Shown here: positions 15,963 to 51,688 of the stretch, in pieces
Layout: each line of letters opens with the position of its first letter
Position numbering within the stretch: position 1 is the first letter of the stretch
NCBI GenBank assembly: GCA_051007495.1
Contig: JBPCSC010000216.1
Location: forward strand, 1-57,971
DNA: 57,971 bases
Direction: 5' to 3'
From: Methylococcaceae bacterium
GTDB taxonomy: Bacteria > Pseudomonadota > Gammaproteobacteria > Methylococcales > Methylococcaceae
Program-made: the position numbers and the translations under genes
Notes under the pieces: generated by a model
Databases searched by the model: none
The model's input: the letters and a program-made list of their open reading frames with translations, nothing else
What the model was told of the DNA's origin: nothing

Positions 15963-16759
15963 AGTACAAACTTGATGCCTATGAGCATCAGCAGCGTCGC
16001 CAATATGGGCCTAAGGATCTTTTCAGGAATCCGGGCACTGAGGTGGCTCCCCAGGTAGATGCCGGGTAGCGAGCCTAATAGCAAACTGCCTAAAAGATTA
16101 AAATCGACATTTCCCATGTGTAAATGGCCCAAGCCGGCCACAGCGGTCAAAGGGATGGCATGGGCCAGATCAGTGCCCACAATACGCACAGTGGCCAGAC
16201 GGGGATAAAGAAAGAACAAAGCCACAGTACCCAAAGCACCCGCCCCCACAGAAGACAGGGTCACCAAAACACCCAGCATCAAGCCCGTCATTATTGTCAT
16301 GGGTGCTTGCCAACGACCAAAACGCTCAGTGTGCGTGACGCGCTGTACAGCAGGTTCATGAGAACGGAGTCGCATGGCAATGAGCCGATTACGAACAAAC
16401 AGAGAAATACTCGTCAAGATCAAGGCAACACCCAATGTTGTGGTGATAACCGCCGTAACGGAGTCATCTTTCTCGAACACGTTTTCAAGAAGATAAATGA
16501 CGGTCAGCGCAGCCGGCAGGCTGCCTATGCAGAGTTGCCCGACGATTTTCCAATCCACCGAACGGTGTTTGCCGTGGTGTACAAATACACCCAAGCCCTT
16601 GGTAATAGAGGCGAAGAGGAGATCGGTACCGACGGCCGTCTTGGGGGAAAAACCAAAAAGAAAAACCAACAGTGGGGTCATCAGTGACCCGCCTCCCACG
16701 CCGGTCAGGCCCACCAAAAAACCAACCAGCAATCCCGATACGATGTAGCCTGTCAACAT
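15959..16759 (-). CDS. TauE/SafE family sulfite/anion exporter-like membrane protein
   Basis: 266-aa polytopic membrane protein with duplicated G-rich helices (LVGLTGVGGGSLMTPLL and LSSVGAGALGTVALFFL), as in the TauE/SafE (DUF81) family. Confidence 0.83.
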   Translation of the reverse strand: MLTGYIVSGLLVGFLVGLTGVGGGSLMTPLLVFLFGFSPKTAVGTDLLFASITKGLGVFVHHGKHRSVDWKIVGQLCIGSLPAALTVIYLLENVFEKDDSVTAVITTTLGVALILTSISLFVRNRLIAMRLRSHEPAVQRVTHTERFGRWQAPMTIMTGLMLGVLVTLSSVGAGALGTVALFFLYPRLATVRIVGTDLAHAIPLTAVAGLGHLHMGNVDFNLLGSLLLGSLPGIYLGSHLSARIPEKILRPILATLLMLIGIKFVL

Positions 16760-16847
16760 TACAAACGCTCCCGTAAAACGATGGAGTCTAGCGGTTTAGC
16801 GCGAAGGCACGCCAGTAGGTTGACATAACGGTTTGGAATAAACTTAT

Positions 16848-16886
16848 GAATAAATAAATAAGAAGCAGCCTAGAGGGGCTGCTTCT
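16848..16886 (-). terminator. Rho-independent terminator downstream of the cytochrome gene
   Basis: Perfect 10-bp stem AGAAGCAGCC / GGCTGCTTCT (16861-16870 / 16877-16886) with a 6-nt loop. On the minus strand it is followed by TTATTTATTTATT. It lies 23 nt after the cytochrome stop codon. Confidence 0.6.
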
Positions 16887-16908
16887 TATTGAGTGTCCTG
16901 CTGAGACC

Positions 16909-19725
16909 TTACTCCACTATGGCCAGATTTTTTACCTTGGCAAATTTTGCCGCAGTGGGTTGAACTACCACATAACCCGAACCTTCAGCGGTAACAGGAG
17001 AAAAATCCACGATCTCGGCGTCAGTGAATTTCTGCCAACTTTTGCAAGTAGCCGAATAAGCCACAGAAAGCTTATCCGTCGCACTCATCGAACCCGTATA
17101 AGGCAGTTTGATGAGAATATCGCCCTTACTCGGATTAGCCACGACTTTGCGCGACTGATTCTGGAAGGTCAAAGTATAAACATCCTTAATCTCATTGACT
17201 CCGAGATTAGCCGCGCATCCGACATCCGCCTTATTAGAAGCGCGGGACTTCATGGTCACCTTAACAGACCGCATCCGAGTTTCACGATCTGCATCACCAG
17301 GCATAATCATAGCCGCCTTGCTAAGACTGGCTTCTCCCACCTCAGAGTTGAATACCAACCAGTGGCTGCTATTCAGTTTTTTGGATATCTTCTCTGCGGT
17401 CGATGATGAAATACGGGCATACTGAGTACCGTCCGCATAATCGGCAGTCTTAAAGTAACCGATAATTTCACGGGTATTTTCGGCATTTAAAATTGACATG
17501 GAAGGATTGATGGCACTGGCTTCGAGTACTGCAGCCACGCTTTCCTTTATAGTGCCGGCAGAGTCGATCTGATAATACGGTTTACCCAATACAAAAATGC
17601 CTTCATCAACCAGGCGACGGTCAGGCACACTACCTATAGGCAGTAGTTTATTGCGTCCGAAAATACCATCATCTGAAACAGCAGCACGATACACACCACG
17701 AGTATCTTTTTCATGGCAATCACCACAAGGAACAGACTCCTTGGCCGGACGTGTCTGGTGATTAAGAATATACTCGTTGGTTTCAGTGTAAATAAGTTTT
17801 ACATCCGGATTTTTGTACCCCTTCCTGTCCAGCAGTTTGTCATAAATCTGCTTGAGTATCTTATACCCGTCATAGTTAACCGGATCACCCAGTTGACCCA
17901 TCGCGTTAATACTTACACGACCGGCTTCCTGTTGGGTTTGAGGATCAATGATGGCACCATACGCCACTCCAGTAGCATCGGTTTTCCTGGCTAGAACCGA
18001 TTGCGTTTCATATCGTGACAAAATCCGTCCGCTGGTTTTATCCTGAGCGAAATAACGGGTATGTGGTTTGTATGGTACAACTTTCATCTTGCCGTCGTGA
18101 TCAATACGGTTTCGGTAATGAATTTCACCGGGTTTGTCATTGTATGCCACATTAGTAATATGACAGGCTTGGCAAGTGATCTGATCGAAATGCACCTGTA
18201 CCACCTTGTCATACGTAGCGGGCATATATCCTTCCATATACCCTCTTTGTTTCCACAATTCACGGTGTGCATCCAAGGCGGTATGTTCACCCGAACTTGG
18301 CAACGACGGAGATTTAGCGGTATCGTGGCAATAGTCACACTCCAGTGGTTTAGGGGCATTGGTTAGGTCATGGCGGATGTCGCTATCCGTGTTTCCCTTG
18401 AGGAATTGATGATCAGGCGACAACTCCATAGGAATGGAAGCCGGCTTATAGTATTCCTTAGAGTGACAGGCTACACAGGTCTGAATTTCCCGGCTTTCAC
18501 CACTATCATCCAGCCATACTTTGCCTTTATGTACGTCATCTTTGAAATCGGCAACCCGAGTTCCGTCCGGATTAAGGGTTTGTACGGAATCAACACCGAA
18601 ACCATAAAAACCACGCCGACTACCGACCGATTTGCCAGAGGAAATCCGGTTAATACCAGAACTGGCCAAATGACACATCATGCAATTATCGTTATTTGGA
18701 AAACGGTACATAGGCATGAGTACATTACCCTGTGCGTCAAAGGCATCTTTATTCCAGATCAGTTTGGGTTGCCCCTGTTCATTAAGATTCAAAGTATAAG
18801 ACGGCTGTGGCGTATTAGGAGTGATGGTACGGTCAACCCGCAGCAACTGCAGACCATCAGTCGTATCTGGTTTCAGGTTAAGGAATTCCAGCATCGCAGA
18901 ATTGGCGTAACGAAAAAAACCTTTATTGATAAACTGACCATCCTGTAAAAGACCCCAATGAGTAAATGCGTTAGAGGTGCCATCCTTGCCGTCATTACCG
19001 CCTAACTGACTGGCGGGGAACTTCTTAAGATTGGAAAAATTCGCATGGCAGGTCAGACAATCGGCTTCACGCACGCCGCTTTTCTGCCAGTCCCACCGAG
19101 CCAGACCGGCCGGCGAGGTTTTATCCCGTTCAAAATAATCCCCATCCTTGTCGGCGATTAGTTCCACTGGTTTTAGATCGTATCGTATGCCGTCACGGTC
19201 TTTTTCTTCCCAGCCACCACCCATATGACAGGAACTGCAAGCCTTGATAAAACCAGCTGCGCCCCATTCACCAAAATCGTTGACATTGGTATTGACCTTC
19301 TTGGCTAGGACACCCGTCTGACTGCCTTGCATACAGTTATAGCCACCGAAATAACCGGGGCCGACTAAGGAAGAAAGGCCTTTAAATCCGAACTTAGGAA
19401 TCTTGTCACCACGTTTTTTGCCGTAGTCATCATCAGTTTCATCAGGGCCTTGTTCAAAGTGAAACCCGTGAGTGATTTTGTCGTAATCATGACAACCTGA
19501 ACCTTCACAACTCTTGCGGGTGCTATACGGCAAGCCGCTTTCCAGCACATGTTTTCCGTTTTCATCCAGTAAAGGAAACACGGGGTGAATCACTGTTATA
19601 TCCAGATCGTTGGTGGCTCTGGCGACCATAGGGACTAAAATTACCAAACACAAAGCCAGCAGCAGCGTCAGCTGCCTAGCCGGTCTGGTACATCGCCTAA
19701 GAAGTGTAAAAAAAATATCGATCAT
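16909..19725 (-). CDS. Secreted octahaem c-type cytochrome (one CX4CH plus seven CXXCH) with a haem-free C-terminal domain
   Basis: The long ORF runs 16909-19797. I prefer the ATG at 19725 (MIDIFFTLLRR...), which gives a signal peptide ...LALCLVILVPMVARA/TND. Haem motifs are CEGSGCH, CSSCH, CLTCH, CMMCH, CVACH, CDYCH, CQACH, CGDCH. GC content is visibly lower than in flanking genes. Confidence 0.85.
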   Translation of the reverse strand: MIDIFFTLLRRCTRPARQLTLLLALCLVILVPMVARATNDLDITVIHPVFPLLDENGKHVLESGLPYSTRKSCEGSGCHDYDKITHGFHFEQGPDETDDDYGKKRGDKIPKFGFKGLSSLVGPGYFGGYNCMQGSQTGVLAKKVNTNVNDFGEWGAAGFIKACSSCHMGGGWEEKDRDGIRYDLKPVELIADKDGDYFERDKTSPAGLARWDWQKSGVREADCLTCHANFSNLKKFPASQLGGNDGKDGTSNAFTHWGLLQDGQFINKGFFRYANSAMLEFLNLKPDTTDGLQLLRVDRTITPNTPQPSYTLNLNEQGQPKLIWNKDAFDAQGNVLMPMYRFPNNDNCMMCHLASSGINRISSGKSVGSRRGFYGFGVDSVQTLNPDGTRVADFKDDVHKGKVWLDDSGESREIQTCVACHSKEYYKPASIPMELSPDHQFLKGNTDSDIRHDLTNAPKPLECDYCHDTAKSPSLPSSGEHTALDAHRELWKQRGYMEGYMPATYDKVVQVHFDQITCQACHITNVAYNDKPGEIHYRNRIDHDGKMKVVPYKPHTRYFAQDKTSGRILSRYETQSVLARKTDATGVAYGAIIDPQTQQEAGRVSINAMGQLGDPVNYDGYKILKQIYDKLLDRKGYKNPDVKLIYTETNEYILNHQTRPAKESVPCGDCHEKDTRGVYRAAVSDDGIFGRNKLLPIGSVPDRRLVDEGIFVLGKPYYQIDSAGTIKESVAAVLEASAINPSMSILNAENTREIIGYFKTADYADGTQYARISSSTAEKISKKLNSSHWLVFNSEVGEASLSKAAMIMPGDADRETRMRSVKVTMKSRASNKADVGCAANLGVNEIKDVYTLTFQNQSRKVVANPSKGDILIKLPYTGSMSATDKLSVAYSATCKSWQKFTDAEIVDFSPVTAEGSGYVVVQPTAAKFAKVKNLAIVE

Positions 19726-20168
19726 CGAAATGTACCTAGAGCTTGGGCAAGCGTGGTGTGTTTCCCCCACCGGGGTGATCAAAGTCCAGCCTTGCACCGT
19801 GAAAAATTAGAATTCAAATGAGAGGGATTATTCCTCGCCAGTTTAGTCAGCAAAATATTTACCAATTGTTACCTTGCCAACAGTTCGATGGGAAACGGTT
19901 GTGATTTAACAGGGATGTAAGTACAAACACTTAAAGTGTAATCTGGCCTAAGGCAAGTTAGGTAAGGGTTATATCACGCAGTCTCACTGGCATTTGCCGC
20001 AATAACGACAAGTGAGTGCGAGAGGTATTTTATGGCGTTGAAGGAGAGTAGTCATTACAGGATTATTCTGTAGGACGAAAATAATCTGAGTAAAATACAG
20101 TATAAGAGTTTAGTGATTAGACAGAGGATAAAAAAGACACCGACGGCAGAATTGCATCATGCACGTTA

Positions 20169-20462
20169 CTAACGTAAATCAAAAAGTAAAAAAGCGGAGA
20201 ACACGTGCACTTCCGATACGGTAGAACATCTGCCACCGATGTAAAGTCGAGGGCGTGGAAAAAACTTCTTGCAATGAATCATGCCACTTAAATATGTTGT
20301 CGAATTACAAGCCTTTATAAGGATGAACCGTATGAAAACTAACATGTATAAAAAATGAATTGTTGGAAAACACACATAAACTGCGGTAAATCCCATGATC
20401 ACCCGTGAAAGCACAAAGCGTGTCATTTGTCGCGATGCGTGCGGCATAAAACAAAGTTCCAT
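20169..20462 (-). CDS. Hypothetical small membrane protein (97 aa)
   Basis: The ATG is preceded by AAGAGGG with a 7-nt spacer. The product has a hydrophobic core FVLSRVIMGFTAVYVCFPTIHFLYMLVFIRFILI. No recognisable family. The region is AT-rich, so a chance ORF remains possible. Confidence 0.35.
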   Translation of the reverse strand: MELCFMPHASRQMTRFVLSRVIMGFTAVYVCFPTIHFLYMLVFIRFILIKACNSTTYLSGMIHCKKFFPRPRLYIGGRCSTVSEVHVFSAFLLFDLR

Positions 20463-20530
20463 CGGTTAACCCTCTTATTATTACTATATTTCAGAGACTG
20501 GCATAAGCTTTGCGTATAAACGAAGTTGGG

Positions 20531-20577
20531 GCGGGTTTGAAGCACACATCAAAACAATCAAACCCGCACGTTTTTTT
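20531..20577 (+). terminator. Intrinsic-terminator-like hairpin immediately upstream of the PPIase gene
   Basis: GCGGGTTTGA (20531-20540) pairs with TCAAACCCGC (20558-20567). The loop is 17 nt, followed by ACG and T7 (20571-20577). The T-run exists only on the plus strand. It ends 21 nt before the ATG at 20599. Confidence 0.45.
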
Positions 20578-20598
20578 ATCGAATCGAGAATTGATGTT

Positions 20599-21474
20599 AT
20601 GAATCGTTACGTTACAGGAATGCTGGTAATAGCCGGTAATATGGTGTTGAATGAGTGTAATGCCATGAGCAGCCAGACCACTTCTGGAAACCCTCATGAT
20701 GCGGTTTCCATTCGGCCTGATGTCAAGCCTGGAGATATTCTGGCTATGGTTAATGGAAAACCCATTGCCCGCAGTGCCTTGGGGCAGAATCCACACCGTA
20801 ATAACATGAAACCGGAAGATAGCCAAAGAGATGAATTAGTGGAGCGTGAATTACTGCGCCAAGAAGCGGAGCGCGATAATCTGCTCAAGGATCCTGCTGT
20901 AGCAGAAAAACTCGACAACGCCATTCGTCTGGCCATGTCTCAGATTTCGGCAGAACACTACATAAAATCTGTATCCATTACGGATAATGACGTCAGGAAA
21001 GAGTATGAAGGGCATGCTCAAATGATGAAGAAAACCGAGTATAAAGCACGGCATATACTGGTAGATTCAGAGAAAAAGGCAGTAGAGATTATAGAAAAGC
21101 TAAATAAGGGCAACTCATTCGAAGAACTGGCACGCAAACACTCAAGTGATAAAGCCAGCCAAGAGCAGGGGGGAGATTTGGGTTGGTTTACTGCGGATGC
21201 GATGGTTGAGCCATTTTCTGTTCATGTTATGGCACTCAAGAATGGTGAGATCGGCTCTAAGCCGATACAAACTCAGTTTGGCTGGCATATTGTGCAGCGA
21301 TTGGAGTCAAGAGAACAAAAACCACCTGCTTTTGAGCAGGTACAGAATCAGATCAGAGCGATGCTGCAGACGCGCCAATTTCATCAGCACCTGGATGATT
21401 TAAAACAGCACGCAAAAATAGAAATAACTGAACCCAACGCGAATAACACCTCGCCTGGAACCCAACAGCCTTAA
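20599..21474 (+). CDS. Periplasmic PpiC/parvulin-type peptidyl-prolyl cis-trans isomerase (SurA/PEB4-like chaperone architecture)
   Basis: 291-aa ORF with a signal-like N-terminus. The parvulin core reads YKARHILVDSEKKAVEIIEKLNKGNSFEELARKHSSD...GGDLGWF...GWHIVQRLE and is flanked by helical chaperone-like segments. Confidence 0.88.
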   Translation: MNRYVTGMLVIAGNMVLNECNAMSSQTTSGNPHDAVSIRPDVKPGDILAMVNGKPIARSALGQNPHRNNMKPEDSQRDELVERELLRQEAERDNLLKDPAVAEKLDNAIRLAMSQISAEHYIKSVSITDNDVRKEYEGHAQMMKKTEYKARHILVDSEKKAVEIIEKLNKGNSFEELARKHSSDKASQEQGGDLGWFTADAMVEPFSVHVMALKNGEIGSKPIQTQFGWHIVQRLESREQKPPAFEQVQNQIRAMLQTRQFHQHLDDLKQHAKIEITEPNANNTSPGTQQP

Positions 21475-21505
21475 GCTCCGTGGTTTAGTATCCATAATAA
21501 TAGTG

Positions 21506-21544
21506 GCGTTCATTCCGCTTATGATGGTGAACAGGAATGAACGC
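21506..21544. terminator. Inverted repeat between the convergent PPIase and XRE genes (possible bidirectional terminator)
   Basis: Perfect 11-bp arms GCGTTCATTCC / GGAATGAACGC with a 17-nt loop. Flanks are only weakly T-rich on either strand. Confidence 0.3.
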
Positions 21545-21550
21545 ACCATT

Positions 21551-21886
21551 TTACCCACCAAAACGCATTGAACCCATAAGGGTATTAATTTCAGTAAGTA
21601 GACTATGGAGTTTGTCTGTTTCAACATCGGGCAAAGGACAGACGGAACAGACACGACACCCCGGAACTTCCATTTGCGCCAGCTCAGACTGGTTTCCAAT
21701 AAACAGGCCTGTTACTTCAAGATTCAAAACACAGGCAATCTGCTTTATTCGGGACAAACTAATATCTGTTTCTCCGCGTTCGATACTCCCGTATCCATTG
21801 GTGGACATTTCCAAACGGGTTGCCATTTCTTCTTGTGACCACCCACGTGCTTGCCTAAGCAATCGTATATTGTTGTGCAGATTCAT
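21551..21886 (-). CDS. XRE-family helix-turn-helix transcriptional regulator with a C-terminal CxxCxxC motif
   Basis: The HTH_3-like N-terminus MNLHNNIRLLRQARGWSQEEMATRLEMSTNGYGSIERGETDISLSRIKQIACVLN begins at the internal ATG 21886 (the track ORF extends to 21928). The C-terminal part contains GCRVCSVCP. Confidence 0.85.
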   Translation of the reverse strand: MNLHNNIRLLRQARGWSQEEMATRLEMSTNGYGSIERGETDISLSRIKQIACVLNLEVTGLFIGNQSELAQMEVPGCRVCSVCPLPDVETDKLHSLLTEINTLMGSMRFGG

Positions 21887-22072
21887 ACTCGTGTGACTCT
21901 CATACTTGGTTGGCCTGTCTGAGGCCAAGGTTATTGAAGTCTTATGAGTCTATCAGGTCGGTTTACTGTGCGATTGTACGGTAGTTCCCGCGTAATGGTT
22001 AAGGGATTGCCTATTCATCTCAAATCTTACCCACCCAGAGGCAACATTCAATCCTTAGACCGTGTATGGCCA

Positions 22073-43406: not shown

Positions 43407-45365
43407 TTATTTGAATTCCAGCATCACGCCACCGTACACCGCCGCTCCAGTCTGATTCAGGCTAATCACATAAGGACTGTGGTTGTCGGTCAGATTTTCT
43501 CCACGCACATACAATTTAAGGCGATCTGAATAGTGGTATTCCAGGCGGGCATTCAAACGCAGATTATCGTTGATGGCCAAAAGGTTGCCGATGTCGTTGT
43601 AAAACCGATCCCGGTAAACGACTTCCATCCACAAGTGCATGGGTTGCCAGAACTGCCATTCCGCGAAGGTTCTGATGGTGTTCACCGACTCAAATGGCGT
43701 ACGCCCGTGGGTATCCAGATTAGTCGCGTCGTTATAGGTATACGCCATACCCGCCAGCCACTGCTCATTGAACCGATATTGGCCCATGGTTTCCATGCCG
43801 GCACTGGTGGCACTGGCGATGTTGAACAGGCACTCACTCGCGCAAGGCCGTTCAAGGGTGGGTGCAGGGCTCCACGTCAACATGATGAGGTTGTCATAGC
43901 GGTGATAAAAGCCGGTCAGATTCAGCGTGAGGTTTTGGGTAGGTGCCCACTCAAATCCCAAATCGCCTCCTGCGCCACGCTCGGGTTTAAGGTTAATCTG
44001 GCCCACCAACGGGAATAATCGCTCTGAATAGCCAGGGATACGATAACCGGTTCCCCCATTGGCTTTGAGTTTAAGTGAAGGCCGCCACTGCCAGGCTAAA
44101 CCCGCATGAACCAGGTTTTGGTCGGCGTATTGGCTGTAGGCTTCATGTCGAATACCCACATCACCGCTCAGACGATTGAACGTGTAGCGGGCATCCAGAA
44201 ACCCCGCTTGTTGCGAGCGTTCATCGTGAATGCCTGGCCCTTCCATAAAACTGGCAGGCCCGGTTCGGGTGTAGGTAGGGCCGTTGGCGCGCTCATGGCG
44301 GCCTTCACTTCCCCACACCAGATGCAGCGTGTGCTGGTCGTTCCCCTGCCAAAGTAACTGGTCATTTTCAAAGCGAGCCAAATACAAATCGGTTGCATAA
44401 CCCAGTTGCAAACCGGAAACCTGAAGTAGATTGTGCGTTTGGGTGTAACCCAATTGCAGCCGACTGATCCAGCGGTCACTCAGTTGAGCGGTCAGCGTAT
44501 TTTGAGCCAGCCAGGCCTCTTCATTCAAAAAAGCATTGAGGCTATCCACTTTGGTGACCCGGCCACGATTGATACCCACCCCGTCCCAGGCATTCCAGTT
44601 TTTGCGGTACAGAAACGAGCCATCCCAGTGCAAACCTTCGGTGATGCTCCAGTCGGAGCGAGTCAATACCTGAGTACCTCGAGACGGATCCCGTTCCGGA
44701 TTGCCCTCGTGTCGGGGGGCCACCCAAGTACCTTCAAAAACATCCGTCCGATTGGCCATGACCGCAATCCCGGCGGTTGGGCCTGCCAGCGTACCGCGCA
44801 GCGTTTCCCTGAGGAAACCAAAGCGGCCCCCTTCAACCCGAAAATCACCGCCGTCTTTGATTGCGTTACGGGAGGTCATGCGAATACTGCCGCTCAGGGC
44901 AGAAAAGGCCTGCGAGGCCGGAGCAAAACCCCGATCCACCTCAACAGACTGCAAACCATCAGGCAGCACGGCATTTAGATTGGTGAGACCGGGCAAGGAA
45001 TACAAAATGGGTATTCCGTCCAAAGACATCAGCCCCTGCCCACTAGCCCCGCGCACACTTAAGCTGCTCATACCCTCGCCGTCGGTTTTGGTGACCGCCA
45101 ACCCCGGTTCACCTTGCAGTACTTCTTCAACACTACGTTCGTGGGCGACGGTCAGGTCAGTTTCGGTATATCGGTGAGAAGGTCGCTCGGCGCGAGGGTT
45201 CATGCCGTCCATAGCGGTGATGGGGGCAGTAATGGTGACTTCAGGCAGGGTATTGATGAGCGGGGGTTGTTCGTCGGCCCGTATCGAAGGGGTGATTGTT
45301 ACGAACAGGGAAACAAAGGCAGAAAGACGGAGATCAGCAAAAACACAGTAAGTTTTGGTTTTCAT
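43407..45365 (-). CDS. TonB-dependent outer-membrane receptor
   Basis: I prefer the ATG at 45365 (MKTKTYCVF...SIRADEQ signal peptide) over the track start at 45539. It has a TonB-box-like LPEVTITAP, a plug domain (SLSVRGASGQGLMSLDGIPI) and a long beta-barrel ending ...AAVYGGVMLEFK. Substrate unknown. Confidence 0.87.
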   Translation of the reverse strand: MKTKTYCVFADLRLSAFVSLFVTITPSIRADEQPPLINTLPEVTITAPITAMDGMNPRAERPSHRYTETDLTVAHERSVEEVLQGEPGLAVTKTDGEGMSSLSVRGASGQGLMSLDGIPILYSLPGLTNLNAVLPDGLQSVEVDRGFAPASQAFSALSGSIRMTSRNAIKDGGDFRVEGGRFGFLRETLRGTLAGPTAGIAVMANRTDVFEGTWVAPRHEGNPERDPSRGTQVLTRSDWSITEGLHWDGSFLYRKNWNAWDGVGINRGRVTKVDSLNAFLNEEAWLAQNTLTAQLSDRWISRLQLGYTQTHNLLQVSGLQLGYATDLYLARFENDQLLWQGNDQHTLHLVWGSEGRHERANGPTYTRTGPASFMEGPGIHDERSQQAGFLDARYTFNRLSGDVGIRHEAYSQYADQNLVHAGLAWQWRPSLKLKANGGTGYRIPGYSERLFPLVGQINLKPERGAGGDLGFEWAPTQNLTLNLTGFYHRYDNLIMLTWSPAPTLERPCASECLFNIASATSAGMETMGQYRFNEQWLAGMAYTYNDATNLDTHGRTPFESVNTIRTFAEWQFWQPMHLWMEVVYRDRFYNDIGNLLAINDNLRLNARLEYHYSDRLKLYVRGENLTDNHSPYVISLNQTGAAVYGGVMLEFK

Positions 45366-45554
45366 GTGTATACGGAGTGAGTCATTAGTGTTGACTATGG
45401 CCTGATGACCGTTCCCGTATGCCTTAGACCTTAATTTTATTGTATGGATGAACACAACCGATAACGCTCGGTGTAGCGTCAGTTTAGCCCTTTTGAGCGT
45501 CCCTGCCGGACGGTAAAACCGCCACAAGCAGGAACACAAAAGGAATCAAACGAT

Positions 45555-45850: not shown

Positions 45851-46342
45851 TCAAAAAGGCACGTCGTCGTCGAAGTCATCTCCACCGTAAGCCGGAGGAA
45901 TGGCCGGTGCGGCAGCAGGCGGGGTGTTTTGCCTGCCGGTCTCGGTGCGGGCCATAGGCGGTGAACCCAGCGGAGGCGCCATGTTATCCCCTGCGCCATT
46001 GCTGCGGGTGTCCAGCATCTGCATATCACTGGCTACAATTTCAGTCGTGTAGCGTTCAACGCCGTTCTTGTCTTGCCACTTGCGGGTTCTCAGGCTGCCT
46101 TCAACATACACCTTACCGCCCTTACGCAGATACTGTCCGGCGATCTCGGCCAGTTTGCGGAAGAACACCACCGCGTGCCACTCGGTGCGCTCCTGTTGCT
46201 GGCCGGTTTGTTGATCCTTCCAGGTTTCGCTGGTTGCGATACGGATATTGGTGACGGCTTCACCGCTGGGCATATAGCGAACTTCAGGGTCGGCACCCAG
46301 ATTGCCGACCAGAATAACTTTATTAATACCTCGTGAGGCCAT
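45851..46342 (-). CDS. ssb: Single-stranded DNA-binding protein
   Basis: 163-aa [42 protein letters not shown]... (OB fold), a Gly/Pro-rich linker and the canonical acidic tip DDFDDDVPF. Confidence 0.97.
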
Positions 46343-46359
46343 TGGTTTCTCCTATAGAG

Positions 46360-47766
46360 TCAGGGTTGAATAGACGTTGTAGCGGGGCGCGTCAGAGCGT
46401 ACTCCAGCGCGGTTCGATCGAGTTGATGTTTGTCGACCTTAATATAGGCGACTCCCTCATCACCTTGCACCACGGCCTCGGCCACGCCAGGGACGGCACG
46501 CAGTGCGGTGGTGATGTCTTCCGCCTCAGCGGAATTGAGCGGGCCGATATTCAGCAGCAGGCTGGACAGATAACGAGGAGGTTTCATGCCGGTAGCCACA
46601 ATCAGCCAGAGCACGGCGGCGACTGCACAGTACAGAAAAACCCCCGCAGGCCCGAACTGGCCGTGTATCCAGCCACCTCCGGCACCACCGGCAAAGGCAC
46701 CGAGAAACTGGGAGGTCGAATAAATGCCCATTGCGGTTCCTTTGAGATCCGGTGGCGCGATTTTGGAGATCATGGAAGGCAGGGTAGCTTCCAGCAGATT
46801 GAATGCCGTAAAGAAAAGATACAGCAGACCAAACACCCCCCAGAAGGTATCACCCAACCAGACAAATCCGGCATCGGCTACTGCCACCAAACCGATGAAC
46901 GACAGAAAAACCGATTTCATCTTGCGTTTTTTCTCGGCCAGAATCACAAACGGAACCATGCTTCCCATGGCCAGCACAAACACGGGGAGATAAATATGCC
47001 AGTGCGTCGGGGTTTCCATTTGCAAACCATCCCGCATCATGACCGGCAACACCACAAAACTGGCAGTCAAAATCAGATGCAGACAAAAAATGCCGAAATC
47101 AAGCCGCAACAGTTCAGGGTTGGCCAATACCTCACCGAACGCGGCCGGACGGGCCTGGGCATCACGGTGAAAGCGGCTGATGGCCGGATCAGGCACCACC
47201 GTAAACAGCACGACGATAGCCAGCACAGCCAGAATGGCGATGATCCAGAACAAACCGGACAACCCCAGCCAGTGCGTCAGTATGGGTCCGGTGACCATGG
47301 AAATAGCGAAGGAAACCCCTATGCTGATGCCAATCATGGCCATGGCTTTGGTGCGGTGTTCCTCGCGGGTCAAATCAGCCGCCAATGCCATGACCACGGC
47401 GGCCACGGCCCCGGCACCCTGCAAAGCCCGGCCAGCGATAATGCCGTAAATCGAATCCGAAAGGGCTGCCACCACGCTGCCCCCAGCGAAGATCAGCAAA
47501 CCCAGGGCGATCAATTTTTTGCGTCCGTACCGATCAGACCAAAGCCCGAAGGGAATCTGAAACACCGCCTGTGTCAGGCCGTAAGCACTAATGGCCAGTC
47601 CGACCAGGACTGGAGTGGCGTCGGTCAAATCGCGAGACATAACCGCAAAAACAGGCAGAATCAAAAACATCCCGATCATGCGCAGCATATAAATAGCCGC
47701 CAGCGAAGCACTGGCCTGCATTTCATCGGGTGTCATGGGGGTATCGATTTCGGAAAGCTGGCTCAA
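46360..47766 (-). CDS. MFS transporter
   Basis: 468-aa protein with about 12 predicted TM helices and an MFS loop motif (LWSDRYGRKKLI). It lies 17 nt upstream of ssb and is probably co-transcribed with it. Confidence 0.87.
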   Translation of the reverse strand: MSQLSEIDTPMTPDEMQASASLAAIYMLRMIGMFLILPVFAVMSRDLTDATPVLVGLAISAYGLTQAVFQIPFGLWSDRYGRKKLIALGLLIFAGGSVVAALSDSIYGIIAGRALQGAGAVAAVVMALAADLTREEHRTKAMAMIGISIGVSFAISMVTGPILTHWLGLSGLFWIIAILAVLAIVVLFTVVPDPAISRFHRDAQARPAAFGEVLANPELLRLDFGIFCLHLILTASFVVLPVMMRDGLQMETPTHWHIYLPVFVLAMGSMVPFVILAEKKRKMKSVFLSFIGLVAVADAGFVWLGDTFWGVFGLLYLFFTAFNLLEATLPSMISKIAPPDLKGTAMGIYSTSQFLGAFAGGAGGGWIHGQFGPAGVFLYCAVAAVLWLIVATGMKPPRYLSSLLLNIGPLNSAEAEDITTALRAVPGVAEAVVQGDEGVAYIKVDKHQLDRTALEYALTRPATTSIQP

Positions 47767-47976
47767 ACCGGACTCCTGAATAACGAAAAAAAAGAGGGGC
47801 TATGGTAGCAGTTCGCACCGTGTTAGGCATGACCGAATAAGTGGAATGCGGCAGGACTCAGCGCAAGGATTCTTACGCCAACCAGAGGGTGATAATCAGG
47901 GCGGCATTATCCCCACGAACTGGGTTATGTCAATATGTGTGGCAAAGATGAAGGCAAACCGGCCCAAGATTCATGC

Positions 47977-50900
47977 TCATCGTCGGTAATTCAGTTGAAC
48001 CCCATCCGCACCAAACTGCTTATACAGTTGAAGAATCAGGCTGTCATCCGGCCTGACTTTCCAGTCGCCGCCCAATTCTAGCTGTGCTTTGGCGTGGTCG
48101 GTTTGGTATTCGATCAACACCGCACACGTACCGCCACGGTAGGGACGCAAAAGCTCGCTGAACGCCTCTGGAGACAGACCAGCGGCCCGCTCTGCTACCG
48201 TAACAGGCCACCGCACGCCAATCGTTTTGAGATGTTGGGCGCGTGCTTGCTCTATGGTGTAGAGGCGATCAGCGGTGAGACGGGGTTGCCCGGCAAATTC
48301 ATCAAACCCCAAATTGCCTTCCACCACCAATAAGGCATCCTTTACCAGCAAACCGCCGTACTGATCCAAAACCTCAGAATACACCGCCACTTCCAGCTTG
48401 CCGCTGGCATCATCCAAAGCGGCGAACGACATACGCTTGCCGGTTTTACTGGTACGGGTGCGTACGTCTGCCACCAGTCCGGCGGCAATGGTGCGGTTCT
48501 CTTGTCGCCGATAACTGCCCTTCTCCGCCACGGTGGATTCCAGCAAACGTCCCAGCCTATCGGTCACGATGTGGCGCAATTCAGATTCATAAGGGCCTAA
48601 CGGATGCCCGCTGAGATAAAACCCCAAAACCAGGCGTTCCTGATTAAGTTGCTCAGTCACCGACCACGGTTCGATGTCCTCCTGTGAGGCGGGCCTGCCT
48701 GGCGATGGCGTTGCCGGTTCCTGTGCCAATCCAAACAAATCATCCTGACCGGCGGCCACCATGCTGCCATGCTGCTCGGCCCGTTTAATGGCATCATCAA
48801 GTTGCCCCAAAAGCTGAGCGCGGTGTCCTCCAAACCCATCAAAAGCCCCGGCGCGTACCAGAGCCTCCAACACCCGCCGATTCATCTTCCGCAGATCATT
48901 ACGCGTACAAAAATCGTACAAGTCAGCGTAATCGCCATTGCGATCACGCTCGGCCAGCATATCCAGAATGGCTGCTCCGCCTACACCCTTGATCGCCCCC
49001 AGCCCAAACCGCAGGGTAGACGCTTTCGGCACGGTAAACACATCCCTGGAATGATTCACATCCGGCAGCAAAATGGTGAGCTTCATCTGCCGACATTCCT
49101 CAATCAGCACCATCATCTTGTCGGAGTTATCCCGATCAGCCGATAGCACGGCCGCCATAAAATCAGCAGGATAGTGGGCTTTAAGCCATGCAGTCTGGTA
49201 CGACACCAGCGCGTAAGCGGCCGAGTGAGACTTGTTGAATCCGTAACCGGCAAACTTTTCCATCAAATCAAAGATATACCCGGCCGTATCCCCCGGTATC
49301 CCCAAACCTACTGATCCGCTGACGAAAATCTCCCGCTGTTTGGCCATTTCCTCCGCTTTTTTCTTGCCCATGGCCCGGCGTAACAAATCGGCTCCGCCCA
49401 AGGTATAGCCTGCCATATCCCGGGCAATCTGCATGACCTGTTCCTGATAAACGATTACCCCATTGGTAGGCCGGAGTATGGGTTCGAGTACGGGGTGTGG
49501 GTATTCCGCCTTGGCCCTGCCGTGTTTGACGTTGATGTAATCGTCCACCATGCCCGATTGCAAAGGGCCCGGACGAAACAAGGCCACCAAGGCAATAATG
49601 TCCTCAAAACAATCCGGCTGTAATCGCCGGATCAAATCCTTCATACCCCGAGACTCAAGCTGGAACACCGCAGTAGTCTGACACCGCTTGAGCAGTTCAT
49701 AGGTTTTGGGATCGTCATAAGGAATTCGATTGATGTCGATGGGGTCCTCGCCCTGAGCCACTCGCCGCTGGTTGATGGGCCGCAAAGCCCAGTCGATGAT
49801 GGTGAGCGTACGCAGACCCAGAAAATCGAATTTCACCAACCCCACCGCCTCAACATCGTCCTTGTCGAATTGAGTCATCAGATTTTTGCCGTCCTCTTCA
49901 CAATAAAGTGGAGCAAAATCAATCAGTTGCGAAGGAGCGATCACCACCCCGCCGGCGTGTTTACCCGGGTTACGCGTCACGCCTTCCAGCGATTTAGCCA
50001 GTTCGATCAGCGTTTTGACATCCTCGTCGGTGTCGTACAAACGTTTCAGATCCTCGCTGTCGGTCAGGGCTTTTTCCAGGGTAATGCCCAGTTCAAACGG
50101 AATCAGCTTGGCGATGCGGTCAACGAAGGGGTAAGGGTGTCCCAGCACCCGGCCCACATCCCGCACCACGGCTTTGGCCGCCATACTGCCGTAGGTGATG
50201 ATCTGGGAAACCTTGTCCCTGCCGTAGGTTTCTGCCACGTAGTCAATCACCTCATCCCGACGCTCCATGCAGAAATCCACGTCAAAATCGGGCATGGATA
50301 CCCGTTCGGGATTCAAAAACCGCTCAAACAGCAACTCAAAAGCGATGGGATCCAGATCGGTGATGTTCAGGGCATAAGCCACCAGAGACCCGGCACCAGA
50401 ACCGCGCCCCGGGCCCACCGGTATGCCCTTGTTCTTGGCCCACTGTATGAAATCCGCCACGATCAAAAAATAACCGGGAAACTTCATCTGGTTGATAACG
50501 CCGATTTCAAGATCCAGACGCTCACCATAAAGCCGGCGTGATTTAAGGTTGCGCTCCGTATCTTCCGGGAACAGAATACTCAAGCGATCGGCCAGGCCGC
50601 GACGCGACTCCTCGGCGAAATAATCCTCGGTACTTATGCCGGATGGAACCGGAAAATTGGGCAGAAAATTCTGGCCCAGCGTCAAATCAAGAGTACAGCG
50701 GCGAGCAATTTCAACCGTGTTTTCCAGTGCCTCCGGCAGGTCGGCAAACAACTCGATCATATCCTCGACACTGCGAAAAAACTGCTGATCGGTATACGCC
50801 TTAGGCCGTTCCGGGTCACTCAGCACCCGTCCCTGGTTGATACAAACCCGTGCTTCATGGGCATCAAAATCCTCGCTGTCGAGAAAACGCACATCATTGG

Positions 50901-51498
50901 TAGCCACCACCGCCACCTGATGTTCAATGGCCAGAGCCACGGCCCGTTCAATATGACCTTCCTCTCCCACCCGACCGGTACGCTGCAACTCCAGATAGTA
51001 ACGATCCCCAAACACCGTCACCCAACGACTTAACAGGCGAGCGGCTTCGCTCAAATGACCGGCCAGCAAAGCCTTGCCCACATCCCCGCGCCCGGCCCCT
51101 GACAAAGCGATCAAGCCCTCATTTAAATCCTGTATCCACTCAACCTTGACCAGAGGAACCCCCTGATGCTGATTTTCCTGATACGCTCGCGAAATCAACG
51201 CGGTCAGATGTCTGTAACCGGTTTCATTCAAAACCAACAGCGTCATCGCGTACGGTTCCGCCGGATCCAAAGGGTTTTGCACATACACATCCGCCCCGGC
51301 CAAAGGCTTGATTCCGGCATCCTCAGCGGCCTTATAAAACTTAACCAGCGCGAACAGATTGGACTGATCCGTCACCGCCACGGCCGGCATCCCCTCAGCG
51401 ACACAGCGTTTAACCAACGGCTTAATATCAACCAAACCGTCGATCAGAGAATACTCAGTATGCAAATGAAGATGAACGAAACGTACAGAAATAGACAT
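47977..51498 (-). CDS. dnaE: DNA polymerase III subunit alpha
   Basis: The ATG at 51498 gives MSISVRFVHLHLHTEYSLIDG (PHP domain start); the track start at 51543 is an upstream extension. About 1,173 aa with the conserved palm motif (FDVDFCMERRDEVI), fingers and OB regions. Confidence 0.97.
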   Translation of the reverse strand: MSISVRFVHLHLHTEYSLIDGLVDIKPLVKRCVAEGMPAVAVTDQSNLFALVKFYKAAEDAGIKPLAGADVYVQNPLDPAEPYAMTLLVLNETGYRHLTALISRAYQENQHQGVPLVKVEWIQDLNEGLIALSGAGRGDVGKALLAGHLSEAARLLSRWVTVFGDRYYLELQRTGRVGEEGHIERAVALAIEHQVAVVATNDVRFLDSEDFDAHEARVCINQGRVLSDPERPKAYTDQQFFRSVEDMIELFADLPEALENTVEIARRCTLDLTLGQNFLPNFPVPSGISTEDYFAEESRRGLADRLSILFPEDTERNLKSRRLYGERLDLEIGVINQMKFPGYFLIVADFIQWAKNKGIPVGPGRGSGAGSLVAYALNITDLDPIAFELLFERFLNPERVSMPDFDVDFCMERRDEVIDYVAETYGRDKVSQIITYGSMAAKAVVRDVGRVLGHPYPFVDRIAKLIPFELGITLEKALTDSEDLKRLYDTDEDVKTLIELAKSLEGVTRNPGKHAGGVVIAPSQLIDFAPLYCEEDGKNLMTQFDKDDVEAVGLVKFDFLGLRTLTIIDWALRPINQRRVAQGEDPIDINRIPYDDPKTYELLKRCQTTAVFQLESRGMKDLIRRLQPDCFEDIIALVALFRPGPLQSGMVDDYINVKHGRAKAEYPHPVLEPILRPTNGVIVYQEQVMQIARDMAGYTLGGADLLRRAMGKKKAEEMAKQREIFVSGSVGLGIPGDTAGYIFDLMEKFAGYGFNKSHSAAYALVSYQTAWLKAHYPADFMAAVLSADRDNSDKMMVLIEECRQMKLTILLPDVNHSRDVFTVPKASTLRFGLGAIKGVGGAAILDMLAERDRNGDYADLYDFCTRNDLRKMNRRVLEALVRAGAFDGFGGHRAQLLGQLDDAIKRAEQHGSMVAAGQDDLFGLAQEPATPSPGRPASQEDIEPWSVTEQLNQERLVLGFYLSGHPLGPYESELRHIVTDRLGRLLESTVAEKGSYRRQENRTIAAGLVADVRTRTSKTGKRMSFAALDDASGKLEVAVYSEVLDQYGGLLVKDALLVVEGNLGFDEFAGQPRLTADRLYTIEQARAQHLKTIGVRWPVTVAERAAGLSPEAFSELLRPYRGGTCAVLIEYQTDHAKAQLELGGDWKVRPDDSLILQLYKQFGADGVQLNYRR

Positions 51499-51560
51499 GC
51501 GAGTAAATTGACCCATAGTGCGTGTAAGACCCAGAAAACCCACCGATTATACAGACACCC

Positions 51561-51594
51561 AGTCCCAGGTTCGTAGTACCGCCTTTAGGCGGAA
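51561..51594 (+). repeat. REP-like palindromic element, copy 1
   Basis: AGTCCCAGGTTCGTAGTACCGCCTTTAGGCGGAA: a GTAG head followed by hairpin CCGCC-TTTA-GGCGG. Confidence 0.6.
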
Positions 51595-51619
51595 GCCCCA
51601 GGCACATAGTCAGGTTCGT

Positions 51620-51653
51620 AGTCCCAGGCTCGTAGTACCGCCTTTAGGCGGAA
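51620..51653 (+). repeat. REP-like palindromic element, copy 2 (33/34 identical to copy 1, same orientation)
   Basis: AGTCCCAGGCTCGTAGTACCGCCTTTAGGCGGAA. A third partial head AGTCAGGTTCGTAGT lies at 51608-51622. Confidence 0.6.
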
Positions 51654-51688
51654 TACCCAGCCGGTATCGCCAACCAACCGCAACCTCG

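Follow-up and report, generated by a model that had tools for sequence, protein, structure and literature searches.

Aerobic methanotrophs have repeatedly been reported to reduce iron minerals and to yield current under hypoxia, and the machinery that they use is undefined. Multihaem cytochromes of porin-cytochrome systems are already known, and one family of them in Methylococcus capsulatus is known from sequence and proteomics. Its members MCA0424 and MCA0426 head a putative eleven-gene operon with eight cytochrome genes (58 CXXCH motifs) and the beta-barrel gene MCA0427; mass spectrometry found both proteins in the surface-extracted fraction, and they were upregulated 4.8- and 8.6-fold in copper-starved cells (PMC4831470). 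Published work on the two proteins covers localisation and expression only. Copper-starved M. capsulatus carries out Fe(III) reduction and produces an anodic current (PMC6281684), and the only knockout in extracellular electron transfer (EET) so far targets a different cytochrome family. Here we analysed a 57,971-nucleotide stretch of DNA from a Methylococcaceae bacterium (GenBank assembly GCA_051007495.1, contig JBPCSC010000216.1, positions 1 to 57,971), hereafter called the window, which carries the gene of a 938-residue octahaem c-type cytochrome.

The window protein agrees with MCA0424 and MCA0426 in length class, in eight collinear haem sites, in a set of invariant histidines, in a cysteine at position 131, in a signal peptide of the signal peptidase I (SPase-I) type and in an upstream sigma54-like promoter. 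It differs from them at haem site 1 and in its genomic setting: MCA0424 and MCA0426 lie in tandem at the head of a porin-cytochrome operon whose barrel is MCA0427 and have CX7CH at site 1, whereas the window gene stands alone, has CX4CH at this site and belongs to an orphan clade.

Family membership, haem sites and candidate ligands

Aligned over its full length, the window protein is 44% identical to AAU90409.1 (MCA0424, Q60BP2; E 1e-247) and 48% identical to AAU90407.1 (MCA0426, Q60BP0; E 1e-285), and by this comparison it is a full-length member of the MCA0424/MCA0426 family. The family is without a Pfam or NCBIfam model and is defined here by our own alignment (A1), in which invariance was counted over 119 sequences and motif patterns over 120 listed matches. 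A search of 5.8 billion proteins returned at least 368 homologues; the 120 best measure about 880-1,090 aa and share 38-73% identity at 98-100% query coverage, all at E <= 1e-200. Furthermore, 768 of 1.84 billion cluster representatives matched at E <= 1e-3 in a filter-free profile search. Named members come from M. capsulatus, M. geothermalis, M. mesophilus, Methyloprofundus, Ca. Venteria ishoeyi, Ca. Halobeggiatoa and Colwellia. A locus scan limited to a single genome for each species turned up 140 loci, and 79 of them were retained. Of these, all except one have gammaproteobacterial or unresolved labels, the exception being a metagenome-assembled genome (MAG) labelled Deltaproteobacteria, and their host groups include Methylococcales, Beggiatoaceae, Sedimenticola, Thiodiazotropha, an Escarpia tubeworm symbiont, Chromatiales and Oleiphilaceae. 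The nearest genome matches of the window cytochrome are Methylococcales MAGs, at 60-61% identity, and the FtsZ encoded in the window falls into clusters with proteins from MAGs only, as for an uncultured gammaproteobacterium.

The c553O proteins MCA0421 and MCA0423 were considered as the homologues in M. capsulatus Bath and were ruled out by the names in the supplement of PMC4831470 and by an interval of 5,927 nt. In this supplement, MCA0421 and MCA0423 are called "cytochrome c553o (family)", and MCA0424 and MCA0426 are called "Cytochrome c family protein", the name that AAU90409.1 and AAU90407.1 also bear. The revised starts of MCA0424 and MCA0427 lie 5,927 nt apart, and the same 5,927 nt separate the start of the first family gene in M. 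capsulatus Texas from the first Met of the next barrel gene. Ward et al. 2004 listed MCA0424 under the c553O family name. c553O (Occ, MCA0423) is encoded directly upstream of MCA0424, is copper co-regulated and surface-located, and is not similar in sequence; BLASTP of the window protein against seven c553O-type proteins (about 800-1,300 aa) revealed no significant homology (best E 0.005 over 97 aa). One homologue cluster includes AAD17242.1, deposited in GenBank in 1999 as a "putative septaheme c-cytochrome" of M. capsulatus Bath, which we take to be ORF3 of the occ cluster (Bergmann et al. 1999), that is, MCA0424. Its count of seven haems is explained by the unusual spacer of site 1 in the Methylococcus type. 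A 2026 Methylobacter EET paper and a 2024 survey of multihaem cytochromes were rejected as descriptions of the family, since they cover MtrAB-type or generic clusters instead.

Among curated Pfam and NCBIfam models, none matched at threshold, and the only matches were sub-threshold ones to generic multihaem models: PF22113 (MtrC/MtrF domains II/IV) reached 25.4 bits against a cut-off of 30 over aa 346-525, TIGR04315 (OTR) 41.7 bits against 375 over aa 415-534 only, and TIGR03507 (OmcA/MtrC) 13.7 bits against 209.3 over aa 340-471. Nothing in the PDB was significantly similar to the window sequence or to a profile of 119 homologues, with the OTR entry 1sp3 at E 0.37 and E 1.4, respectively. Proteins of the MccA/SirA and HAO/ONR/NrfA types gave no match in Pfam, NCBIfam, the PDB sequence search or Foldseek, and the window protein has neither the CX15CH or CX12-17CH motif of haem 8 in MccA/SirA nor a CXXCK motif. 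An earlier reading made from the letters alone (the sequence-only reading) had called the protein unplaced and proposed searches against multihaem Pfam and TIGRFAM models, which have now given scores below the cut-offs throughout. With respect to curated families this description stands; nonetheless, the protein belongs over its full length to a large family, although one that is itself uncharacterised.

The product contains 21 Cys and 24 His, and its exactly eight CH dipeptides compare with about 0.5 predicted by chance. All eight stand in haem-attachment context, one as CX4CH and seven as CXXCH. Because the eight sites are invariant in 119 of 119 homologues and collinear in 19 distant relatives, these motifs are not chance occurrences. 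Long-spacer CXnCH motifs are absent from the 938-aa product, as is CXXCK. Retranslation thus reproduced the eight motifs of the sequence-only reading, including CEGSGCH at the very nucleotides that it had named, as well as the lack of an MccA-type long-spacer motif, and the signal peptide that it had proposed agrees with those of the family. It had overlooked a 17th conserved cysteine, Cys131. The reading frame extends upstream of ATG 19725 to GTG 19797, and the public database entry is a 957-aa product; the N-termini of homologues favour ATG 19725 as the start.

The spacer of site 1, which is rich in Gly and Ser, varies in length at one homologous position. Among the 120 matches, CX4CH occurs in 93, CX7CH in 16, CX2CH in 8, CX5CH in 2 and CX3CH in 1. 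The CX7CH form is that of the Methylococcus type (CGNGNGSGCH), and we know of no described CX7CH haem site. The M. capsulatus cluster is reported to contain a cytochrome c biogenesis gene (PMC517821).

Outside the motifs, exactly seven histidines (47, 89, 399, 439, 487, 512 and 656) are invariant in 119 of 119 sequences, Cys131 is equally invariant, and the window protein keeps all eight residues. Among Met and Lys residues, none is conserved in both the family and the distant relatives. Candidate distal ligands for the eight haems are therefore seven His and one Cys, and from this residue count it is plausible that one haem is His/Cys-ligated via Cys131 or that an open haem lies beside a reactive thiol. 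The remaining non-motif cysteines are 12 and 26, in the signal peptide, and 837 and 894. The latter two (nt ~17213-17215 and ~17042-17044) belong to the variable C-terminal domain, have no conserved counterparts in other members (elsewhere Ala, Val or Arg at the former and Gly at the latter) and may form a lineage-specific disulfide.

Signal peptides of the SPase-I type are found family-wide and a lipobox-like motif in 2 of 119 members; hence, the family proteins, unlike MtrC and OmcA, would not be lipoproteins. This agrees with the surface cytochromes of M. capsulatus studied earlier, the c553O family and SACCP, which are non-covalently attached (PMC4831470).

An AlphaFold2 (AF2) model built on the family alignment (pLDDT 87.5, pTM 0.86) consists of a largely coil/helix haem part (aa 40-525), a beta-rich haem-free insert (aa ~526-660) between haems 7 and 8, and a C-terminus that is mixed alpha/beta and then turns into beta-sandwich-like strands. 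Conservation reaches 0.62-0.77 between aa 38 and about 750 and falls to 0.34-0.47 in the ~190 aa that remain, with the haem-free residues 672-750 conserved as strongly as the haem core. The sequence-only reading had described a haem-free, beta-rich tail of about 265 aa. The tail is haem-free and largely beta, but it is not uniform: aa 672-750 are conserved, alpha and beta elements are mixed, and only residues ~751-938 are variable. Structure prediction followed by Foldseek, which that reading had recommended, gave a confident model with no PDB match at E <= 1e-3 and no cytochrome among the top 50, a search that is weak on haem-rich proteins poor in secondary structure. The marginal matches were beta-sandwich/Ig-like folds only, so that a binding or Ig-like domain is a reasonable description of the tail, with no named fold assignable to the C-terminal domain from Foldseek against the PDB.

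The profile search also revealed a second tier of unnamed metagenome proteins of ~650-900 aa (E 1e-47 to 1e-15). In 19 such distant relatives, all eight haem motifs occur in the same order and six of the seven additional His are kept, and proteins of the P0270, P0281, P0292 and P0301 type share with the window family the N-terminal signatures HPP-x-KLLD, CxxCHxGGG and WDWxxSG-x-x-E-x-DCxxCH. An equivalent of Cys131, at the same or an adjacent position, is present in about 11 of the 19 and absent from about 8, which have all eight haems. The column of His47 (V-I-H-P) holds Cys in six and Val in one, which hints at an axial ligand able to switch between His and Cys. Most distant relatives end in a transmembrane (TM) helix followed by an overlapping gene for an FdnI/HydC-type cytochrome b, or are fused to such a domain; the helix or cytochrome b stands where the window family has its soluble variable C-terminal domain. 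This architecture resembles that of Geobacter CbcL. Since these proteins keep the eight motifs and are TM-anchored or cytochrome-b-linked, the octahaem core is old and originally quinol-linked at the inner membrane, and the window family is its soluble derivative. An overlapping or fused cytochrome b of this kind was seen in the loci L089:7001-9732 and L090:7001-9750 and the proteins P0292 and P0301; both loci have a DUF3373 gene nearby, and L089 also has a sigma54 activator gene.

Operon context in relatives and the orphan window copy

To compare gene order, open reading frames (ORFs) were called in all loci and then clustered, with the family gene as cluster F0. In about 60 of 78 loci, F0 stands at the head of a conserved same-strand operon, F0-F7-F1-F5-F2-F3-F4-F6-F3. 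F7 encodes a putative small Cys-rich membrane protein (~80-120 aa) and F1 a barrel with no Pfam match (~420-460 aa), both devoid of CXXCH. The others are multihaem cytochromes: F5 (~200 aa, 7 CXXCH), F2 (~330 aa, 8), F3 (~300 aa, 6), F4 (~750 aa or split, 7), F6 (~270 aa, 3) and a long F3 (~800 aa, 12-14). Including F0, the operon encodes about 50 CXXCH motifs. The AF2 model of F1 (pLDDT 83.6) has ~22 long antiparallel strands, and Foldseek returned 301 PDB matches at E <= 1e-3; nearly all of the 50 matches listed are barrels of the outer membrane, among them ushers, porins and the barrel of a TonB receptor. The operon is a porin-cytochrome gene set, in which the family gene takes the position of mtrC in mtrCAB.

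Two features of these operons stand apart. F7, always located between the octahaem gene and the barrel gene, carries LPWLAGAG…SNCT(V/L)PxxGxCSTCGSC between hydrophobic stretches and has no Pfam match (L006-L017 and 20 further loci, e.g., L009:6929-7213). In the operon of P0009 (53% identical; L080:17468-21579), the genes after those for the cytochromes encode an iron-sulfur protein (Fer4_5) and a reductase of 985 aa (flavodoxin/FAD/NAD(P)-binding), which suggests a cytoplasmic electron entry point; they match genes that Ward et al. 2004 described within MCA0421-0443 as "flavodoxin domain" and "Fe-S binding".

Likeness to MtrC and OmcA of Shewanella lies in the family gene being first in an operon of porin and multihaem cytochromes, in a cell-surface location in one organism, and in accessory paralogues outside the operon, as with OmcA. 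The MtrC/MtrF pentahaem domain model also matches the window protein below threshold over haems 4-7. On the other hand, the window protein has eight haems rather than ten and an AXA-type cleavage site rather than a lipobox, and Foldseek detected no staggered-cross four-domain fold. The partner barrel, with ~22 strands, is smaller than MtrB, which has ~26. A functional analogy with MtrC/OmcA is thus probable, outside family membership.

In 37 of 76 loci, the 450 nt that precede the family gene contain sigma54-type -24/-12 elements (TGG-N9-TGCW), compared to ~0.11 expected per region of this size, and this set includes the site published for MCA0424 (PMC4831470). Genes for NtrC-type sigma54 activators are frequent neighbours of family loci. 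In the Methyloprofundus chromosome NZ_OZ252594.1, the operon (L091, 3.09-3.11 Mb) is without its octahaem head gene, and two orphan octahaem genes (L042 and L059) lie 0.8 and 1.2 Mb from it.

In a neighbour-joining tree, the window protein falls into a Methylococcales clade of ten CX4CH sequences (51-73% identity), sister to the operon-linked CX7CH clade of the Methylococcus type. All ten keep the pattern of seven CXXCH and one unusual motif. Every member with enough flanking sequence is an orphan, each with surroundings of its own (pilCD-coaE-zapD, biotin genes, a radical-SAM gene, TonB-receptor genes), with no neighbour in common. A 78%-identical relative, P0006, is divided into two overlapping ORFs of 259 and 694 aa in two separate sequencing runs (L087:356-3164 and L088:1614-4422), which points to a pseudogene with a frameshift or to an assembly error common to both runs.

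The window gene fits this clade. It does not head an operon, a feature of context that is typical of the orphan clade; no other ORF of the window contains a CXXCH, and homologues of F1, F5, F2, F3, F4 and F6 neither adjoin it nor occur elsewhere in the 58 kb. Its neighbours are housekeeping genes and include the dcw cluster through ftsZ and lpxC. Downstream lie MOSC and TauE genes, and upstream lie a divergent gene for a parvulin-type peptidyl-prolyl isomerase (PPIase) and an HTH_3 regulator gene, followed by rsmE, yggS, mutL, miaA, fpg, groEL and glycogen genes. A terminator-like hairpin intervenes between the cytochrome gene and TauE/MOSC and thereby sets it apart from them. An operon with MOSC and the TauE "sulfite exporter", attractive in view of sulfite reductases of the MccA type, was ruled out by this strong terminator and by neighbours that no relative shares, and the divergent PPIase was ruled out as a dedicated partner because it is conserved beside no relative, orphan-clade members included. 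The window gave no Rfam match. Judging by its promoter-like element and terminator (Table 1), the gene is monocistronic and probably transcribed from a sigma54-dependent promoter. Together with the spacer, the PPIase gene and the HTH gene, it lies in a low-GC patch (16700-22000; GC 0.39-0.48 versus 0.50-0.55 in the flanks), which suggests an insertion into a housekeeping region, possibly an acquired islet.

Table 1. Features of the octahaem cytochrome locus; positions are those of the window
Feature	Position (nt)	Strand	Remarks
Octahaem c-type cytochrome CDS	16909..19725	-	938 aa; ATG at 19725; stop codon 16909-16911; from translation and full-length homologues
Signal peptide, aa 1-37	19615..19725	-	…VPMVARA/TND; SPase-I type, no lipobox; matches family signal peptides
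Haem motif 1, CEGSGCH (CX4CH), aa 73-79	19489..19509	-	Translation, family alignment
Cys131 codon, in PGYFGGYNC	19333..19335	-	Invariant non-motif Cys; may be an axial ligand (His/Cys haem) or a catalytic thiol
Haem motif 2, CSSCH, aa 163-167	19225..19239	-	Followed by invariant GGGW-E-x-D-R segment
Haem motif 3, CLTCH, aa 223-227	19045..19059	-	Translation, family alignment
Haem motif 4, CMMCH, aa 348-352	18670..18684	-	Translation, family alignment
Haem motif 5, CVACH, aa 417-421	18463..18477	-	Translation, family alignment
Haem motif 6, CDYCH, aa 463-467	18325..18339	-	Translation, family alignment
Haem motif 7, CQACH, aa 518-522	18160..18174	-	Translation, family alignment
Haem motif 8, CGDCH, aa 667-671	17713..17727	-	Translation, family alignment
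Variable haem-free C-terminal region, aa 751-938	16912..17475	-	Mixed alpha/beta, then beta-strands; less conserved than core
Intrinsic-terminator-like hairpin	16857..16890	-	14-bp stem, 6 G-C pairs, T-rich tail; 19 nt past stop codon
AT-rich spacer, cytochrome gene to divergent PPIase gene	19726..20598		873 nt, GC ~0.39-0.43; presumed regulatory region
Sigma54-type -24/-12 element TGGTAAATATTTTGCT	19849..19864	-	GG-N10-GC; overlaps sigma70-like site; motif class enriched upstream of family genes
Parvulin-type PPIase gene	20599-21474	+	Divergent; in low-GC patch
HTH_3/XRE regulator gene	21551-21928	-	In low-GC patch

Several other features were observed elsewhere in the window. A gene for a TonB-dependent receptor (43407-45539, minus strand) lies 24 kb from the cytochrome gene, and its linkage to it is doubtful. 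The gene at 51518-56059 (plus strand) encodes a large secreted protein of the adhesin or RTX type, 1,513 aa long, in which DUF5122 beta-propeller repeats occur together with cadherin-like/Big_9 domains and RTX calcium-binding repeats; the annotated start of this gene overlaps the 5' end of dnaE (47977-51543, minus strand). Moreover, ORFs of 491 aa (46333-47808, plus strand) and 468 aa (46360-47766, minus strand) overlap almost fully on opposite strands, and the plus-strand ORF is without a Pfam match.

Function of the window cytochrome

The gene encodes, as predicted from its sequence, an intact, Sec-exported, non-lipidated octahaem c-type cytochrome that keeps all haem sites, the seven histidines and Cys131. 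We give about even chances to its being an accessory outer-surface or secreted electron-transfer cytochrome that works with a conduit encoded elsewhere. After Sec export and subsequent haem attachment in the periplasm, the protein would be the outermost electron-transfer module, surface-associated or secreted, and would link, by electron transfer, a porin-cytochrome conduit whose genes lie in another part of the genome with acceptors outside the cell, for which Fe(III)/Mn(IV) minerals, humics and Cu(II) are candidates. The side turned towards the partner or substrate would be formed by the variable C-terminal ~190 aa, and the window copy, transcribed alone, would be an accessory orphan paralogue, as OmcA is relative to MtrC. 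We place EET first because of the porin and the ~50-haem operon in relatives and the published surface localisation (PMC4831470). The haem density from which the sequence-only reading argued for a catalytic enzyme is a weak argument. The coexistence of orphan copies with an operon that lacks F0 in the complete Methyloprofundus chromosome also speaks for an accessory role.

Several observations weigh against this assignment. No porin, partner cytochrome or sigma54 activator is encoded in the 58-kb window, and the Methyloprofundus operon is interrupted by two insertion sequence (IS)/transposase genes and has its barrel gene split into 302 and 142 aa. The surface location comes from the M. capsulatus homologues only, in a salt-extraction proteome (PMC4831470). 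The EET knockout, delta-MCA0421 (PMC6281684), concerns the unrelated c553O family, and since c553O proteins are not homologous, its phenotype is not directly relevant to the window family. Given the inner-membrane anchoring and cytochrome b linkage of the distant relatives, a periplasmic location is conceivable. Finally, the count of seven His and one Cys as ligands, together with the weak OTR-type similarity, would allow a catalytic role.

Such a role, that of an octahaem oxidoreductase in the periplasm or at the surface with one atypical haem (His/Cys via Cys131, or penta-coordinate), is possible, though in our view somewhat unlikely. The protein would then act on thiosulfate/tetrathionate, nitrite, hydroxylamine or sulfite, and be OTR-, TsdA- or OcwA-like rather than a pure electron wire. 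Beside the ligand count and the lack of a Met or Lys conserved in both tiers, this view draws on OTR (Shewanella SO4144, PDB 1SP3; TIGR04315) and MmcA (TIGR04314). Both resemble the window protein in having eight haems and in local similarity over haems 5-7, which for TIGR04315 is significant (E 7e-11, aa 415-534); weak matches to 1SP3 are collinear at window motifs 2, 7 and 8, OTR and the window protein may each have one atypically ligated haem, and sulfur oxidisers often carry the family (Beggiatoaceae, Sedimenticola, Thiodiazotropha and tubeworm symbionts). However, the window protein is more than twice as long as OTR and gave no Foldseek match to OTR. OTR-type scores fall 5-10 times below the family cut-offs, the family profile reached only a non-significant E value with OTR in the PDB, and no cytochrome was among the top 50 of Foldseek. 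The weak matches to OTR and MmcA models that run through both tiers, distant relatives included, suggest a remote superfamily relation at most. There is a precedent for open-coordination haems in the surface cytochromes OcwA and OmhA, and for one such haem in the N-terminal module of OTR and MccA (PMC9250108). OcwA and OmhA, from Gram-positive metal reducers, are surface terminal reductases with small-molecule reductase activity in vitro; they have nine and eleven haems, come from a different phylum and cell-envelope type, and gave no sequence or fold match to the window protein. The absence of Cys131 from about 8 of 19 distant relatives that keep eight haems, and operon partners that are cytochromes and a porin, with no typical enzyme-accessory genes among them, also count against catalysis. 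A further-reaching form of this view, which we consider unlikely, makes the ~770 representatives an unrecognised octahaem branch alongside HAO/ONR, OTR and MccA. In it, one haem would be His/Cys-ligated via Cys131 (or open), site 1 would tolerate CX2-7CH, and the soluble form of ~940 aa would work at the surface as a catalytic oxidoreductase (e.g., for thiosulfate/tetrathionate or metal ions), delivering electrons to a ~50-haem porin-cytochrome conduit of methanotrophs and sulfur oxidisers or withdrawing them from it. If true, "aerobic" methanotrophs and large sulfur bacteria would gain a dedicated extracellular redox enzyme.

It is doubtful that the protein serves copper or iron acquisition as a surface reductase of extracellular Cu(II)/Fe(III) for uptake under scarcity. 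The M. capsulatus homologues are induced by copper starvation and lie in the copper-responsive cluster CRC1 beside TonB-system genes (PMC4831470), one relative (L082) has a TonB-dependent receptor gene ~3 kb downstream on the same strand, and the window has its own receptor gene, though 24 kb off. Yet the family is widespread in non-methanotrophs without a special copper demand, no conserved metal-uptake gene is linked to it, and a ~50-haem operon would be disproportionate for the purpose. We regard as very improbable that the gene is the decaying, now functionless remnant of a horizontal acquisition. Its orphan position in a low-GC patch, the split reading frame of P0006 in two samples and the IS elements in the Methyloprofundus operon could be read in this way, but the 938-aa ORF is intact with every family-invariant residue present, it has promoter-like elements and a strong terminator of its own, and the ten orphan-clade members have diverged in different contexts with the 7+1 motif pattern kept in all.

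Altogether, the window gene is tied to a widespread family that heads a ~50-haem porin-cytochrome operon in Methylococcales and many sulfur-oxidising Gammaproteobacteria. What goes beyond the searchable literature is the breadth of this family in methanotrophs and sulfur oxidisers, the architecture of the operon, the variable CX2-7CH site, the invariant Cys131, sigma54 control, and the cytochrome-b-linked octahaem relatives. The alignment-defined family, its eight haem sites, seven invariant His and one Cys, the variable CXnCH motif, the sigma54 elements and the division into orphan and operon clades offer handles for experiments. If Cys131 does ligate a haem or act in catalysis, the octahaem enzymes, of which few are known, would be joined by a new type. 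If it does neither, the protein would be one more outer-surface electron-transfer cytochrome and, because no Pfam or NCBIfam model covers the family, would still be useful for annotating EET potential in metagenomes.

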